From sequence record MN781580: a DNA stretch of 64,000 bases. The stretch is one strand, 5' to 3'. Under the pieces are notes generated by a model. The model worked only from the letters and a program-made list of their open reading frames with translations, was not told the DNA's origin and searched no databases. This DNA is from Shigella phage KRT47. Position 1 is the stretch's first letter. The number at the start of each line of letters is the position of its first letter. The position numbers were made by a program, and so were the translations under genes. Of this stretch, positions 23,541 to 31,208 are shown piece by piece.

Positions 23541-23594
23541 TCCTCATGTTATGTCAGTAAGACTACTGTAACACAACACGAGGGACTTGTAAAC
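23541..23594 (-). repeat. 54-bp perfect direct repeat, copy A (early promoter plus translation-initiation cassette)
   Basis: Identical to 39407..39460; minus-strand sense GTTTAC-N18-TACAGT then GAGGA SD. Confidence 0.85.
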
Positions 23595-25651
23595 TACATC
23601 TTGAACTTTTTAGACATTCCGTTGATGTTAACCAAAGAAGCCAAGATTTGAGAAACTTCGTTTTCCTCTTCTTTTGATTCTTCTACAAGGAATTGATTAA
23701 ACCCAGCCATTGGACGAACTTCACCAGTTTCCATTAGATGATCGCCATCATATACCGATTCTTCTAATTGTTCAGAAGGAGGAACGATTGTGCCTTCGAT
23801 TAGATACTTATTATAAGCAGTTTCTTTCATCATGTACGTGCTAACTTTATTAATCTTCAGCAAAATTCCACGCGGTAGAATAACTTCAGCTTCTGATGGA
23901 AATCCTGATAAATGACCTGGAACGATAACTTTAATTCGCTCAGCTCCTTTTATTACCATACCTACGCTAGTTTCAGCATCTTCATTCGCATAAGCAGAAT
24001 GACTGCCCATATGCATTAAATCTTCAGCATCAACAGAACCTTCTCCTTCACCAGAAAATACTGCACCGGAATCATCTAGAGTCATATAGTTTTTACCATG
24101 CTCACCGAAGATATTTGGTTTAAGCGATGTTGATACGAAGTTCTTGAAATAAAACATTTTATTTTCAATATTATGACGTAAAGTTTTAAAGGTAACTTCT
24201 TGTCCACGATAAAGCGTAGTTCCTGGAGGAAGAACTGATCCTTTGGCAAAGGCAGAATCCAGCGTCTCGATGTGTTTAATAGCTCGTTCCATGTATTCTT
24301 CACGGGTAGAATCTGGTTTACCCAAGAGGAACGAGTTCATTTCAACATATGAATCTGCACAATAATCTTCAATTACATCAGACTCAGCCTGAGTTAATCC
24401 TTTTGGAGTTACTTCGGTGCTTGCATATTCATATGCCTGAGCAGCAGATTCATTAATCAATTTATAAATGCCATTCATGACAAATTGAATAATAGCTACC
24501 TTTTCGTCTGGCGTGGCTTTAGAACCTTTAACTAAATCATTGATAATTTTCTTAATAACATCAAAGCTATTAGAAATATTAATGTCAGCGAGATCGCTCA
24601 AAATTTTATCGGTTTTATAATCAAAGAATTCTTTATTCTTTAAATATTCTTGAGAACCTTGATATGTTATATCGCTCTGCAGCTTGATAGATGGATCACG
24701 TAAACGTGCATGGGCCAATGCAATATGATTTCGGAAGCTTTCTAGTTCATAATCGTTAGATTTAAAACGAGAAGCACTTCTCATACCACCGATAGCTCCT
24801 TTGCTGAAGTTTGAACCAATCTGGATAACGCCAGAGTTCATTGGTCCTTCTGCTTTATATACCGGAACTTTAGATTCAAACTCTTGATATTTCTTAGCGG
24901 CGAAGCTATCACCCTGAAGTGAAGCATCGACAGTAGAATATTGAGCTTGTGCTGCCAATCGACGACTAATTTTAGTTTTCTGAATAACAGCTTGATCCGT
25001 GCGCTTATCATTTTCTAGAGCAATAGAAGCGGCAACAGCAACAGCTTTAGGAACAGCATTACCTGTTTTAACGTCTACATAAACATCACCAACCTTTGAT
25101 TCAACTTTTGTGAATAACTCAGTTGAAATAGGAGGTACACCTGGAATGTCTTCTAAATTAGCATTTTTACGATAAACCATAATATATGCATACTTTTTAT
25201 CATAGTCCCAGATTTCCTTTAAAAGAACATATCGACCTGCTCCTTTAGTACGTACTAAACGGTCAGCAATAACTTGCATTTGACGAGCAGCGCCATTTGT
25301 TTTACTTTTTAGTACGCGGAATAGGCATGCGTCAATTTTATACTGTTTCATTGTTTGAAGAGCAGTATCAAAAACCGCATTAATGACACCAATTGGATTT
25401 CCACCCAAGTTTTTAAGTTTAACTAATGATAGTTTCTCATTAACACCTATCATTACGATATGCATCATTTTATCGCCTGGCTTAACGTTTTTATTTGTAT
25501 CACCGCCAGAGGTGTATGTACAAAATCTAAATCCAGGAAGCACACTTTCTTCACCGGCTTGAATAGCAAAAATTTGAGGTATTTTATGCTTAGGATTTAA
25601 GTTAACAACCGGCGCCGAAGCGCCGTCAAATAATTCTGTAATAAGTTCCAT
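23594..25651 (-). CDS. Alt-family ADP-ribosyltransferase paralogue
   Basis: 685 aa; N-terminus MELITELFD and C-terminal R / STS / ExE motifs (YRGQ, FVSTSL, EAEVILPRG) shared with the adjacent paralogue; middle region diverged. Confidence 0.8.
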   Translation of the reverse strand: MELITELFDGASAPVVNLNPKHKIPQIFAIQAGEESVLPGFRFCTYTSGGDTNKNVKPGDKMMHIVMIGVNEKLSLVKLKNLGGNPIGVINAVFDTALQTMKQYKIDACLFRVLKSKTNGAARQMQVIADRLVRTKGAGRYVLLKEIWDYDKKYAYIMVYRKNANLEDIPGVPPISTELFTKVESKVGDVYVDVKTGNAVPKAVAVAASIALENDKRTDQAVIQKTKISRRLAAQAQYSTVDASLQGDSFAAKKYQEFESKVPVYKAEGPMNSGVIQIGSNFSKGAIGGMRSASRFKSNDYELESFRNHIALAHARLRDPSIKLQSDITYQGSQEYLKNKEFFDYKTDKILSDLADINISNSFDVIKKIINDLVKGSKATPDEKVAIIQFVMNGIYKLINESAAQAYEYASTEVTPKGLTQAESDVIEDYCADSYVEMNSFLLGKPDSTREEYMERAIKHIETLDSAFAKGSVLPPGTTLYRGQEVTFKTLRHNIENKMFYFKNFVSTSLKPNIFGEHGKNYMTLDDSGAVFSGEGEGSVDAEDLMHMGSHSAYANEDAETSVGMVIKGAERIKVIVPGHLSGFPSEAEVILPRGILLKINKVSTYMMKETAYNKYLIEGTIVPPSEQLEESVYDGDHLMETGEVRPMAGFNQFLVEESKEEENEVSQILASLVNINGMSKKFKM

Positions 25652-25654
25652 GAT

Positions 25655-27751
25655 TTATCCTTGAACGAACTTGTAAGGCATGTTTGCAATATCTATGCAA
25701 GACGCAATAATTCCAAGAGATGATTCTACTTTTTGTTTAACATTTGATGAAACAAATGATGCAAAGTCAACTCTGTCTTCTATTTCAATATCACCTGTCA
25801 TTGCAACTACTTCACCAGTTTCCATTAGACGGTCACCGTCATAAATTACTGATTCGGTGAGTTCTTCCGTAGTCATAACTTCAGCTTGAATGAGTTTTGT
25901 ATTATTAGATGTTGTTCCGTCATTATTAGAAGCATCAGTTATTTTATTAACTTTGACCATCAATCCTCGTGGTAGAATAACTTCAGCTTCTGTTGCTATT
26001 CCGAGACTTCCTGGATATACAACATTAACTTTATGAGCTCCATCAATTGCCCATCCTATTTGAACTTTAACGTATTCAGGATTTTCTTTATACGCTCTTA
26101 TTTCGTTTGGATTAATAGTTATTCCTTCTTCATTTTTATCAACTGTCAATTCATTACGAGCTTCTGGTTCTAAAAGACCAATACCAGCATGTGTAATTCC
26201 AAAACGTCCAAAAATGATAGGAGTTAAAGAAGTAGATACAAAATTTCTGAAATAGAACACTTTATTTTTAACTAGTGCTTCGTATATAGGAGCAGTCATG
26301 CTTTGAGCACGATAAACTGTAATGCCTTCTGGTATACGGTCACCATTTTCAAAAGCTGAATCTAAGTTATTTATAGCAGATTCAATTTCTTTTTCACTCA
26401 TTACATCATATCGTTCTGGATTGTAACGACCCAAAAGAAGATTATTGATGTCAGTATATCCTGAACCACAATACTCTCTAATGCCGCGCTTTTGTGATGG
26501 AGTATATTTAGAACCATCACGGGCAATAGTAATATCAATCATTGGACCTGCACCAATTCCAGAAAAGCTGTAAATCATTCTTTTGAGGAATTTAGTTTTT
26601 GCTGCGTTCCAGGAATTTTTAGTCATTTCTTCCCAGACTTCATCTGGCTGTCCTTTACGGGTTTTATTATGTTTATCAAGCCAATTATCTTTATATTCTT
26701 CAAAGAATTGATTAACAGCTGCTGCGTATTTCTCTAAACATTTTATTGAAGTAGTTGGTTCATTTTTAATCGCATTAAGAATTACATCTTTAATTTTTTC
26801 AGAAACTTCATTAACCTCACTTTTTGAAAAGAATTTATAGTCATAATGAAGTTCATCTGCAGTTCCTTCAGCAATAATTTTTGCTGCTTTAGTTTTAGAA
26901 GCCAATGAATTAATTCCAAGTTTCATTTCTTCTGCTTCGGGAATTAAAGGAGCGGTAGCAGGTTTATTGAAATTAGCTGCGGTAGATTCATACTTCTGGA
27001 ATAATTCACTTTCAAATCTAGAAGATTCTAATGATTGACTTTGTGCAATTGCTCTACGGGAAATTTTAACTTTAACGATTACAGCTTGGTCAGAACGTTT
27101 ATCATTTTCTTGCGCAATAGATGCAGCAATTGCCTCATTTTTAGTTACTTGAGCTCCAGTATCTTTATTGATATAAACATCACCGACCTTCGATTCAACT
27201 TTAGTAAAGAGCTCGGTACTAATTTCCGGAACTCCTGGAATGTCTTCTAGTGATACATTTTTGCGATGTATAAGAATATATGCATACTTTTTATCGTAAT
27301 CCCAGAGTTCCTTAAGAAGGACGTATCTGCCACCTGAACGACTGCGGATAAGTCTATCAGCAATAAGTTGAATTTGACGAGCTTGACCAGCAGTTTTAGA
27401 CTTAAGAATACGGAGCATACAGGCATCAATTTTATACTGACGCATCGTTTGCATTGCAACAGTAAAAACTGAATTGATGTAATTAATTGGGCTTGGACCG
27501 AGACCTTTTAATTTAGCAATTGAACCTTTAGCAGTTAATGTAAAAGGAACAATATGCATCATTTTATCGCCCATCTTTAAATCGCGATTAGTATCACCTC
27601 CAGATGTATAAGTACATAAACGAAAACCTGGTTGTTCAATTGCGTCATCAACATGAACTGAAAAAATTTGCGGTATTTTCTTCTTTGGATTTAAGTTTGT
27701 AATCGGAAGAGTAGTATCTTCGTCAAATAATTCTGTAATGAGTTCCATCAT
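25655..27751 (-). CDS. alt: Alt ADP-ribosyltransferase (head-packaged, RNA polymerase-modifying)
   Basis: 698 aa; R / STS / ExE motifs (YRAQ, FVSTSL, EAEVILPRG); lies on the ligase side as T4 alt does; which copy is orthologous to T4 alt is not certain. Confidence 0.75.
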   Translation of the reverse strand: MMELITELFDEDTTLPITNLNPKKKIPQIFSVHVDDAIEQPGFRLCTYTSGGDTNRDLKMGDKMMHIVPFTLTAKGSIAKLKGLGPSPINYINSVFTVAMQTMRQYKIDACMLRILKSKTAGQARQIQLIADRLIRSRSGGRYVLLKELWDYDKKYAYILIHRKNVSLEDIPGVPEISTELFTKVESKVGDVYINKDTGAQVTKNEAIAASIAQENDKRSDQAVIVKVKISRRAIAQSQSLESSRFESELFQKYESTAANFNKPATAPLIPEAEEMKLGINSLASKTKAAKIIAEGTADELHYDYKFFSKSEVNEVSEKIKDVILNAIKNEPTTSIKCLEKYAAAVNQFFEEYKDNWLDKHNKTRKGQPDEVWEEMTKNSWNAAKTKFLKRMIYSFSGIGAGPMIDITIARDGSKYTPSQKRGIREYCGSGYTDINNLLLGRYNPERYDVMSEKEIESAINNLDSAFENGDRIPEGITVYRAQSMTAPIYEALVKNKVFYFRNFVSTSLTPIIFGRFGITHAGIGLLEPEARNELTVDKNEEGITINPNEIRAYKENPEYVKVQIGWAIDGAHKVNVVYPGSLGIATEAEVILPRGLMVKVNKITDASNNDGTTSNNTKLIQAEVMTTEELTESVIYDGDRLMETGEVVAMTGDIEIEDRVDFASFVSSNVKQKVESSLGIIASCIDIANMPYKFVQG

Positions 27752-27800: not shown

Positions 27801-27989
27801 TTAATAATCTATTGGTAAGAGAGTACGATATATTTCAAACTTTGGACCTTTTTCATAGGCATCAAATGTTTCTGTGAATTTATTATAAGCATATGCATCT
27901 ATAAATTCAATCATAATTTGTGATACAGAAGTAGAAACATCTCCACCTTCTTTTTGAGCAACGACAATTGTTTCTAAGTAAGCTTTCAT
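27801..27989 (-). CDS. hypothetical small protein between ligase and alt
   Basis: 62 aa ORF, start overlaps ligase stop. Confidence 0.5.
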   Translation of the reverse strand: MKAYLETIVVAQKEGGDVSTSVSQIMIEFIDAYAYNKFTETFDAYEKGPKFEIYRTLLPIDY

Positions 27990-29449
27990 AGACCAGTTAC
28001 CTCATGAAAATCACCAAATACATCCTCGAATGTATTAGCTTTAGTTTTATCTTCACGTAAACGAATCGCAATTGGAAGAAATAATTTTACGTAATCAGTG
28101 CGGCCATCAGATTTTAGCCAACCGTTGCATTCGCACTCTAGAATTTTTCCAATATAATAATTTTGGTTTTCCATAATGCGAGTACGGTCAAGTTCATGTG
28201 ATTTTACACCGGCTTTATCTTTTAAGCCTGAACCAGCATTTACTTTAATTTTTCCACACTCTGATTCAAGAATAAATCCACCTGCTTTAGTAGGGTCTTT
28301 ACGGTGAGGATAAATTCCTACAATTTTTAAATCAACATCAATTACTTCTTTAAATTTATAGAGATTTTTTGAACGAGCATTTTCCCACAATCCATCGGTA
28401 TTTTTGAGAATAATACCTTCAAGACCTTGGTCAATATACTTTTTATAAATTACCTTAGCTTCATCTAGGTTATTTACTACCTGGTTTTCAATTAAAATTA
28501 CTTTATCATATCCTGATGTCATTTGTTCTAGTTTAGAAAAACGTACATCATATTTTAAACGAAACGCCGGAAGACCGTATATTTCTACCAACGGGACATA
28601 ATCCCAGACCTGAAACTTCATGCATTTGGCTTCTTTTTCGGAAATGGTTCCTTTTAAGGATTTATTGGCGATTCCATTAGAAGCAGTACGAGATTCCGCT
28701 ACTTCGGCGAATTCTTTAGCTTTACTAATTTCAGGATAAGCATCAAAAAGAAAATCTAGGCCTTCTGGTTCCTTTTTAACTTGCTCATGGTATACCAATT
28801 CGCCATCAATTAACACACCTTCTGGATGAATCTGGCGGGCTTCAGCAGTCATTTTGATTAATTCTTCCTTAAGAAGATCTAATCCTAGATATTCATTACC
28901 AGCTCGTGATAAAAGACGAACATCATCTAATTCATCGCCTCGGACTTCAGCAAAACACCGGGCTCCATCTGCTTTTAACTGCGCAAAGGCTGGAAACTTG
29001 ATATTCTTACTAATGCCCTTTTCATCATAAGAACTTGCCAGCATTTGAGGTTGTTCAGGAATTAAACCTGGCCAAACTTTGTTTGCAATAGATACTGAAG
29101 CACCGCATTCAAGGTCTCGCATCATCACTCGACGCAAAACTTCAACATCATCCTTTTTACCATCAGTGATATATCCAGTTAATTCCTCAATTGCAGCATT
29201 TCCAGTCAATTTCCGAGTAGCTAACGTGAATTCAATGAAATCAAGCATATCGGTAATGGTCAGCATTCCAAAACTCTGGGTAGCAATACCAGGTTTAGGC
29301 CATTTCTTGATATAATACTGTAACCCACGAGAATAAGTCAGACGATATACTCGTTTAAGCAATTCATTATCTTTATTCTTTTCAAGAATTGCTTGCTTCT
29401 GCTTAGTTGATCCAATAGATGCTATTTCATTCAGAATTTTAAGAATCAT
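27986..29449 (-). CDS. 30: ATP-dependent DNA ligase gp30
   Basis: 487 aa; recognised as near-identical to T4 DNA ligase; adenylation motif KADGAR. Confidence 0.97.
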   Translation of the reverse strand: MILKILNEIASIGSTKQKQAILEKNKDNELLKRVYRLTYSRGLQYYIKKWPKPGIATQSFGMLTITDMLDFIEFTLATRKLTGNAAIEELTGYITDGKKDDVEVLRRVMMRDLECGASVSIANKVWPGLIPEQPQMLASSYDEKGISKNIKFPAFAQLKADGARCFAEVRGDELDDVRLLSRAGNEYLGLDLLKEELIKMTAEARQIHPEGVLIDGELVYHEQVKKEPEGLDFLFDAYPEISKAKEFAEVAESRTASNGIANKSLKGTISEKEAKCMKFQVWDYVPLVEIYGLPAFRLKYDVRFSKLEQMTSGYDKVILIENQVVNNLDEAKVIYKKYIDQGLEGIILKNTDGLWENARSKNLYKFKEVIDVDLKIVGIYPHRKDPTKAGGFILESECGKIKVNAGSGLKDKAGVKSHELDRTRIMENQNYYIGKILECECNGWLKSDGRTDYVKLFLPIAIRLREDKTKANTFEDVFGDFHEVTGL

Positions 29450-29715
29450 TGTTCATCCTTCAGAGTTTGATTTACAGCTCTATTATAAATCAATTCATCA
29501 TTAAGCTCAGTTAAAGACCTATGATATGTAGTTCTAACTTTATTTCCTTGCATCCAGTGCTTGATATAAATGAAACCTTGCTCTACACATTTTTTAAAAA
29601 TTCGTTCGTCTTTTTGAGCTCGGAATTCTGGATTGCATCTAAAGAATTGATTTACGTGACCGTAATCACGCGTAGTATTACCTTCATTTTCATAAATAGT
29701 GTGAACGACAAACAT
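29446..29715 (-). CDS. hypothetical protein (30.1-like position)
   Basis: 89 aa ORF, overlapping-stop coupling with neighbours. Confidence 0.55.
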   Translation of the reverse strand: MFVVHTIYENEGNTTRDYGHVNQFFRCNPEFRAQKDERIFKKCVEQGFIYIKHWMQGNKVRTTYHRSLTELNDELIYNRAVNQTLKDEQ

Positions 29716-30554
29716 TAGAATGCTCCTTGGAAAATATTATCACCACAAGTAGGTCTATTATACAAATACTCTATGCCACCAGGTTTAATATAGTTCCATG
29801 TCTGAAACGGATGTGTCTGATATGGATGATATAGATGATTATAAGGATTAAATCCAGGCGTTCTCCAGGTAGTGTTCCAACGAAAAGAATCGTTTTTAAC
29901 CATCTTCTCAATTAAATCTTTTATAGCTTTTTCACTATCAAAACTTTCTTTATTTTCCTTTGGTGAAAAAAGCTTATTTTCTACATCATTCCATGTATAA
30001 ACCCGCTGAGCAGTTTTTGGAATATTGTCACGCTCTCCTCGAGCCATCCAATAAACAGGAACATTTAATATTTCACTCGCATGATCGCAGTGGTGAGCAA
30101 GATCGTCAATATAACAAATTACGTTATATTTCTCTTTTGCCTTTTTGAATAACTCTTCTTTTGAAGAATCATGACCACACATCATTACTTCTGAGAAGGC
30201 ACCAGGAAAAAGAGCATTCAAATTAAATTGACGATTCAACAGAGCGTCAATAGAATCACCCAATGCTGTAACAGCTACAAAATTATAATCTTCTTTTAAT
30301 TTGTTAATTACACACAGGGCATCTTTATATGGAGACAAGTAACGAATAAAATCTGATCGATTGTATTTTTCAATTAGCTTGACACCGAGTTCTTCATCAC
30401 AATTAAAGAGTTTACCTGGAGAAATAAATTTCTCATCTTGGATCATTTTTAAAATATGTTCTAACGGAAGATTATATTTCTGAGCAAAATAAGGAAGACC
30501 TGATTGCCAGCTTAAACATACTCCATCAATATCAGTTAAAATAGTAGGCTTCAT
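29715..30554 (-). CDS. HAD-superfamily hydrolase-like protein (30.2-like position)
   Basis: 279 aa; N-terminal HAD motif I ILTDIDGV; later YIDDL. Confidence 0.55.
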   Translation of the reverse strand: MKPTILTDIDGVCLSWQSGLPYFAQKYNLPLEHILKMIQDEKFISPGKLFNCDEELGVKLIEKYNRSDFIRYLSPYKDALCVINKLKEDYNFVAVTALGDSIDALLNRQFNLNALFPGAFSEVMMCGHDSSKEELFKKAKEKYNVICYIDDLAHHCDHASEILNVPVYWMARGERDNIPKTAQRVYTWNDVENKLFSPKENKESFDSEKAIKDLIEKMVKNDSFRWNTTWRTPGFNPYNHLYHPYQTHPFQTWNYIKPGGIEYLYNRPTCGDNIFQGAF

Positions 30555-31015
30555 AGAGAGTCTCTTAATAGGTTTAACACATCAATAAATTCAGCTTCGG
30601 TTAGTATTGTATCATCTTTTGTTAGACCACTAGCCATGCTGTGCTTCAAAACTTTTCCTTTCGAGGCTTGTAATGCATCGCGAAAGCCCTTGTTTTGGAA
30701 CGCTGCTTCAAAATATGCATTTGTGTATAATTCTTTCCACGCTGGAGAGTATCTTGAAAACGGAACTCCAAGCCAGAAGAGGGTCCCACGGTCCTGAGCT
30801 CTAGCATAAGACCTTCCAGCTTGTTGGGCGGCAATCCCGGATAACCCAAATATACGTCTTTGCTGTTCAACATTTTTCACCTTACATCCTTGGAGGAATC
30901 CTTCGAGACCTCCAAATTGAATGCCATCCATAACGAAAGGCCATTGGGCGAAATTACTTAATGCACATGATGGCCATTTAAAATTGCTTCTTATCTCTAG
31001 TTCAGACATTTTCAA
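30551..31015 (-). CDS. NADAR / YbiA-like (DUF1768) domain protein (30.3-like position)
   Basis: 154 aa; LSNFAQWPFVMDG...LEGFLQGCK resembles the YbiA signature FSNFxxWP...DG...EHYFQxxK. Confidence 0.5.
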   Translation of the reverse strand: MKMSELEIRSNFKWPSCALSNFAQWPFVMDGIQFGGLEGFLQGCKVKNVEQQRRIFGLSGIAAQQAGRSYARAQDRGTLFWLGVPFSRYSPAWKELYTNAYFEAAFQNKGFRDALQASKGKVLKHSMASGLTKDDTILTEAEFIDVLNLLRDSL

Positions 31016-31208
31016 TACTTATAATTTCAACATCAGCCCAATGACCATAGCAAGGAAGACGAAATTCAACTGGCCAGTTAGGGTCCTTTTCTAATATAAT
31101 AGACTTAACTTGTGGTTCTTCATGTTCATCGGTATACGGACCTTTATACGTTACTTTATATGTGACTTTAATGTATTGAATTCCAAAAATCTTATTAATT
31201 ATATTCAT
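31002..31208 (-). CDS. hypothetical small protein
   Basis: 68 aa ORF in overlapping-gene array. Confidence 0.5.
   Translation of the reverse strand: MNIINKIFGIQYIKVTYKVTYKGPYTDEHEEPQVKSIILEKDPNWPVEFRLPCYGHWADVEIISIENV

Follow-up and report, generated by a model that had tools for sequence, protein, structure and literature searches.

Assignment of gene 30.3 to adfN

We analyzed a 64,000-nucleotide stretch of DNA from Shigella phage KRT47 (sequence record MN781580; hereafter the window), focusing on gene 30.3, which is located on the minus strand at 30551..31009 (stop codon 30551-30553 included) and encodes a NADAR-fold protein of 152 amino acids (aa). This gene is very probably the ortholog of bacteriophage T4 gene 30.3 (adfN, anti-DarT factor NADAR), and its product would accordingly be a guanine-specific DNA ADP-ribosylglycohydrolase that counters the defense system DarTG1. 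The window protein and T4 gp30.3 (AdfN; NP_049816) are both 152 aa long and identical at 148 of 152 positions (97%), and in both genomes the gene stands between 30.4 upstream and 30.2 downstream, joined to each by overlapping start and stop codons. Orthology, synteny, the NADAR fold, the conserved residues E36, K43 and H123, and an intact C-terminal helix were established here; for enzyme activity and the phenotype against DarTG1, we rely on experiments that others published for the 97%-identical T4 protein.

The gene and its function are already known and experimentally characterized in T4. DarTG1 resistance of T-even phages was mapped to gene 30.3, which was renamed adfN (Johannesman et al., Nat Commun 2025, PMC11825919; preprint PMC11257639), and T4 AdfN is both necessary and sufficient against DarTG1, with the purified protein stripping ADP-ribose from DarT1-modified DNA (PMC11825919; PMC11257639). 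Either E36A or K43A destroys the function of T4 AdfN, and the allele of phage RB69 is dead due to a frameshift that deletes the last 15 residues, which form the C-terminal helix (PMC11257639). T4 gp30.3 is also counted among the phage NADARs, with His replacing the clade-defining acidic residue (PMC11543638; PMC11125620), and in vitro it hydrolyzed guanosine-ADP-ribose but not thymidine-ADP-ribose (PMC11125620). A 2026 study confirmed hydrolysis of the guanosine adduct by the T4 enzyme, and its summary table does not place phage NADARs among the enzymes reversing cytidine-ADP-ribose (PMC12945103). In a T4 transposon screen, insertions in 30.3/adfN were lost specifically on DarTG1 hosts, and 30.3 is the sole gene that the text names as conditionally essential on DarTG1 (bioRxiv 10.1101/2025.11.20.689424). 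AdfN is reported as the first lytic-phage antitoxin-like enzyme that undoes the DNA modification of a defense system. An initial annotation of this stretch, made from the sequence alone, had suggested a role against host DarT-type toxins, which is borne out by the published function of the T4 counterpart.

The phage in the window is not T4 itself, although the window protein shares E36, K43, H123 and the C-terminal helix with T4 gp30.3. The allele is full length, carries every invariant residue, and retains the helix lost in RB69 (residues 138-152, the last 15 codons, 30554..30598, minus strand), where the C-terminus is identical to that of T4 and the structure model places a helix at residues 138-151. 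The four differences from T4 are conservative and fall outside conserved columns. Given these features, we assign the allele, on the basis of orthology, as a predicted functional adfN that would behave as the T4 protein does. It is highly improbable that the window holds an inactive, decaying copy: inactive natural alleles do exist (the RB69 frameshift), and truncated or fused gene fragments occur among the database homologs (P0007, P0013-P0018), but the full length of the product (152 aa), the preserved C-terminal helix, the presence of every invariant residue and the 97% identity to a functional protein argue against decay. The allele is one more near-identical copy of adfN, of which hundreds exist in public T4-like phage records, and it adds nothing new on AdfN. 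Its practical value lies in annotation, as the closest public records that we checked, including the T4 RefSeq entry, label the gene "hypothetical protein", and it can now be named adfN (anti-DarTG1 DNA ADP-ribosylglycohydrolase). The intact allele further predicts that Shigella phage KRT47 would be resistant to DarTG1.

NADAR fold and catalytic residues

A Pfam profile search of the 30.3 product returned Phage_30_3 (PF08010; E=2.6e-69, 231.8 bits against a cut-off of 36), and the same family was found in all 111 homologs recovered from a database search, several of which are named "YbiA (DUF1768 family)" by JGI. PHROG 652, to which the protein belongs, is described as "unknown function". When members of the aligned family were searched individually, 16 of the 40 matched the Pfam NADAR family PF08719 (best 1.5e-7). 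The family profile also matched Escherichia coli YbiA (PDB 2b3w) by hmmsearch (E=0.003) and by hhalign (E=6.4e-8, probability 94.6%), and YbiA is the closest relative at the sequence level and, among solved structures, the second-best match by fold. The NADAR/YbiA-like domain proposed by the initial annotation was recovered at the level of the family profile.

The residues required for catalysis are retained. In alignments of 41 or 40 sequences, S18-N19-F20, E36 and H123 show no variation, and conservation of K43 is 90% or more; the 30.3 product carries, after the SNF motif, the E-x-x-x-Q-x-x-K motif that contains the catalytic Glu and Lys. Aligned to YbiA, S18-N19-F20 corresponds to S30-N31-F32, E36 (catalytic glutamate; codon GAA, 30902..30904, minus strand) to E48, and K43 (catalytic or ADP-ribose-contacting lysine; codon AAG, 30881..30883, minus strand) to K55; these are the two positions of the T4 mutants described above. 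H123 (codon CAC, 30641..30643, minus strand) marks the phage, or gp30.3, NADAR clade. It follows directly after the last strand (residues 120-122) of the structure model and, by ungapped extension of the hhalign alignment, stands opposite YbiA E125, at the position that separates NADAR clades, which is Glu in the YbiA type, Asp in the DarG1 type and His in the phage clade (PMC11125620, PMC11543638). The window protein combines the PF08010 match with His in place of the last-strand Glu/Asp, and so belongs to the gp30.3-type clade.

These comparisons also bear on the idea of a housekeeping N-glycosidase of the YbiA type, with riboflavin-pathway intermediates as substrates, which we consider extremely unlikely. 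Although YbiA is the closest relative by sequence and ranks second by structure, identity to it is only about 21-24%, the clade-defining Glu of the YbiA clade is replaced by the invariant H123, the literature places the phage clade nearest to the DarG1 NADARs, and the phenotype is defense-specific, in contrast to the housekeeping, riboflavin-related role of YbiA. DarG1, the antitoxin of DarTG1 (e.g., the Geobacter lovleyi NADAR, PDB 8bat), differs from AdfN in having an N-terminal extension and a catalytic Asp where AdfN has His. AdfN, by contrast, has no DarT toxin encoded beside it, and in uninfected cells the T4 type is unable to stand in for DarG1. AdfN(Bas32) and AdfN(Bas60), from T5-like and Vequintavirinae phages, resemble T4 AdfN as phage NADARs that counter DarTG1 with specificity for guanine adducts. 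They differ from T4 AdfN in falling into other clades of NADAR, in having been acquired independently and in working without T-even infection.

Proposed mechanism and evidence against the assignment

Based on the published experiments, the host DarT1 toxin would place ADP-ribose on guanine (N2) in replicating phage DNA, and AdfN, as a minimal, core-only N-glycosidase of the NADAR fold, would cut the guanine-ribose bond and free ADP-ribose. Unmodified DNA would be restored and phage replication could continue in hosts carrying DarTG1. The target of AdfN would be the DNA modification rather than the toxin, and thymidine ADP-ribosylation by DarT2 would not be reversed. It is a remote possibility that AdfN also clears further guanine ADP-ribosylations of DNA or RNA that originate from host defenses.

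Several observations weigh against the assignment of this gene to adfN and its function. The window protein differs from T4 gp30.3 by four substitutions (window-to-T4 K11R, I59L, F104I, M125I). On its own, it has no PF08719 match at E<=1, its NCBIfam profile search gave no match, and phmmer against PDB sequences returned nothing meaningful, so the link to NADAR needed family profiles and structure. The T4 NADAR construct is given as "gp30.3; residues 1-208" in the methods of the Toxins 2024 study (PMC11125620), which does not agree with a protein of 152 aa; the mismatch could reflect a typo, a count that includes a tag, or another homolog. Lastly, T4 AdfN does not neutralize DarT1 in uninfected cells, so that what it acts on or with in vivo is incompletely understood.

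The lack of rescue from DarT1 toxicity in uninfected cells is also one of the points in favor of a different substrate, namely that the product mainly hydrolyzes soluble ADP-ribose derivatives (immune signals, NAD+ salvage intermediates or RNA-repair by-products) instead of DNA adducts. Iyer et al. (2022, PMC9503650) had put forward such a role for phage NADARs on the grounds of genomic context, ahead of the experimental work, and the enzyme consists of the catalytic core alone, lacking the DNA-channel extension present in DarG1 (PMC12945103). However, the purified T4 enzyme cleaves ADP-ribose from DNA, the deletion phenotype is DarTG1-specific, and no NAD-salvage genes recur beside gp30.3 homologs in the 63 distant loci surveyed below, which makes a mainly soluble substrate unlikely.

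Full activity of T4-type AdfN is seen only during T-even infection, and a phage co-factor is suspected (PMC11825919; PMC11257639). We consider it a long shot that the gene for this co-factor lies in the tightly overlapping early cluster to which adfN belongs. The obvious candidate there would be the translationally coupled HAD-fold gp30.2, acting perhaps on the released or residual (phospho)ribosyl product or bringing AdfN to the DNA. The evidence leans against gp30.2, because in related loci 30.2 travels with the ligase gene rather than with 30.3 and the T4 screen names only 30.3, and the present data offer no positive lead on the co-factor.

Locus and gene boundaries

A 1.9-kb stretch around the gene matches 673 phage records, nearly all from T4-like phages of Escherichia or Shigella, with the closest (98.1% DNA identity) being Hafnia phage IsaacDaniel and Shigella phages ESh16 and ESh34; on these matches the window is assigned to a Tequatrovirus (T4-like) genome. 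The gene order is that of the T4 map, running from an Alt ADP-ribosyltransferase through alt.1, DNA ligase, 30.1 (DUF3045), a 279-aa open reading frame (ORF), 30.3, 30.4 to 30.8, rIII and gp31 to dCMP deaminase. Together with the PF08010 match, the 111 homologs and the 97% identity to T4 gp30.3, these records leave 30.3 as a real gene.

The initial annotation had described a product of 154 aa at 30551-31015. The minus-strand ORF at 30551..31015 does read 154 aa from a TTG at 31015, and both quoted strings, LSNFAQWPFVMDG and LEGFLQGCK, occur in its translation. The true start, however, lies two codons further in, at the ATG of position 31009, a six-base correction to this mechanical ORF that gives 152 aa (459 nt in the T4 annotation). 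The ATG at 31009 overlaps the stop codon of gene 30.4 (ATGTCTGA) and yields the T4 residue numbering of E36 and K43, and at the other end the 30.3 stop overlaps the start of 30.2 (ATGA). Across 29446..31208 (minus strand), the stop codon of one gene overlaps the start codon of the next throughout the series 30.4, 30.3, 30.2, 30.1 and 30 (ligase), at ATGTCTGA, ATGA, TAATG and ATGA, which suggests one translationally coupled early unit.

A 75-aa ORF in the +1 frame lies inside 30.3 (30646..30873, minus strand) and corresponds to 30.3', as annotated in T4. Of 14 relatives, which go down to 85% identity, 13 have this frame open. When codons are shuffled without changing the protein, however, the frame also stays open in 8-29% of cases, and within the stretch the reduction in synonymous change is mild; with this null and so slight a reduction, the case for 30.3' as a constrained overlapping gene is not convincing.

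Alt genes and conservation of the neighborhood

Two ADP-ribosyltransferase genes of the Alt family lie in the same early region, 2.8-7 kb from 30.3, in agreement with the initial annotation, which had placed such genes a few kb away. They stand in tandem on the minus strand and encode products of 698 aa (25655..27751) and 685 aa (23594..25651), both full length, both matching PF03496 and 40% identical to each other. Their closeness raises the reading, put forward in the initial annotation, that the 30.3 product reverses or tunes ADP-ribosylation by the phage's own Alt/ModA/ModB transferases, and co-expression of NADARs with ADP-ribosyltransferases in T4-like phages was noted by Iyer et al. (PMC9503650). 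Alt-type enzymes, however, modify protein arginines (as is well established for T4 Alt and stated in the T4 annotation note), whereas NADARs cleave base N-glycosidic ADP-ribose (PMC11125620, PMC11543638), and the published AdfN phenotypes depend on DarTG1.

To this can be added the neighborhoods of 63 loci with distant gp30.3 homologs (<60% identity). Alt-like sequence was present in only two of them (L015 and L018) and 30.2 in eight, always beside the ligase gene, and no other neighbor family occurred in more than eight of the 63 loci. A functional operon link of gp30.3 with either gp30.2 or Alt was rejected on these counts. Alt is near gp30.3 only in T-even relatives and these two further loci, and the closeness of 30.3 to the Alt genes is best read as inherited synteny and not as a functional link. 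Tuning of the phage's own ADP-ribosylation finds no support and is very unlikely, and a role in countering DarTG1 remains our preferred reading.

The first ~116 residues of the 685-aa Alt copy are 95-98% identical to the small T4 ORFs alt.-1 and alt.-2, which by this identity look like a remnant of the second Alt paralog, intact in the window. The alt.1 product (62 aa; 27801..27989, minus strand) matches the recently added Pfam family PF24647, "Phage blade protein" (E=7.5e-29).

The HAD-fold neighbor gp30.2

Gene 30.2 (29715..30554, minus strand) is the 279-aa ORF in which the initial annotation had noticed a HAD motif, ILTDIDGV. The motif is indeed present, and the product, 97% identical to T4 gp30.2, is predicted to be a HAD-superfamily hydrolase (residues about 1-195) followed by a poorly ordered C-terminal tail. 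Pfam and NCBIfam searches of gp30.2 gave no match, and PHROG lists it, like the 30.3 product, as "unknown function". Among 35 homologs, the HAD motif residues D8, D10, K132, D150 and D151 are invariant and T96 is at least 90% conserved. The AlphaFold2 (AF2) model has a predicted local distance difference test (pLDDT) score of >90 for residues 1-190, and Foldseek against the PDB gave 85 matches at E<=0.001 (best 8.8e-8); the 50 of these that were listed are all HAD-fold proteins, including 5'(3')-deoxyribonucleotidases, or enzymes engineered from that scaffold. Sequence motifs and model together indicate a HAD-fold hydrolase, with all four HAD motifs (DxD nucleophile, Ser/Thr, Lys and acidic pair) on a capped Rossmannoid core.

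The C-terminal ~80 residues of gp30.2 (29715..29950, minus strand) form a low-confidence tail of variable length after the HAD domain. Near the end of this tail, many homologs carry a short conserved peptide, G-I-E-Y-L-x-x-x-P-T, which might be a docking motif.
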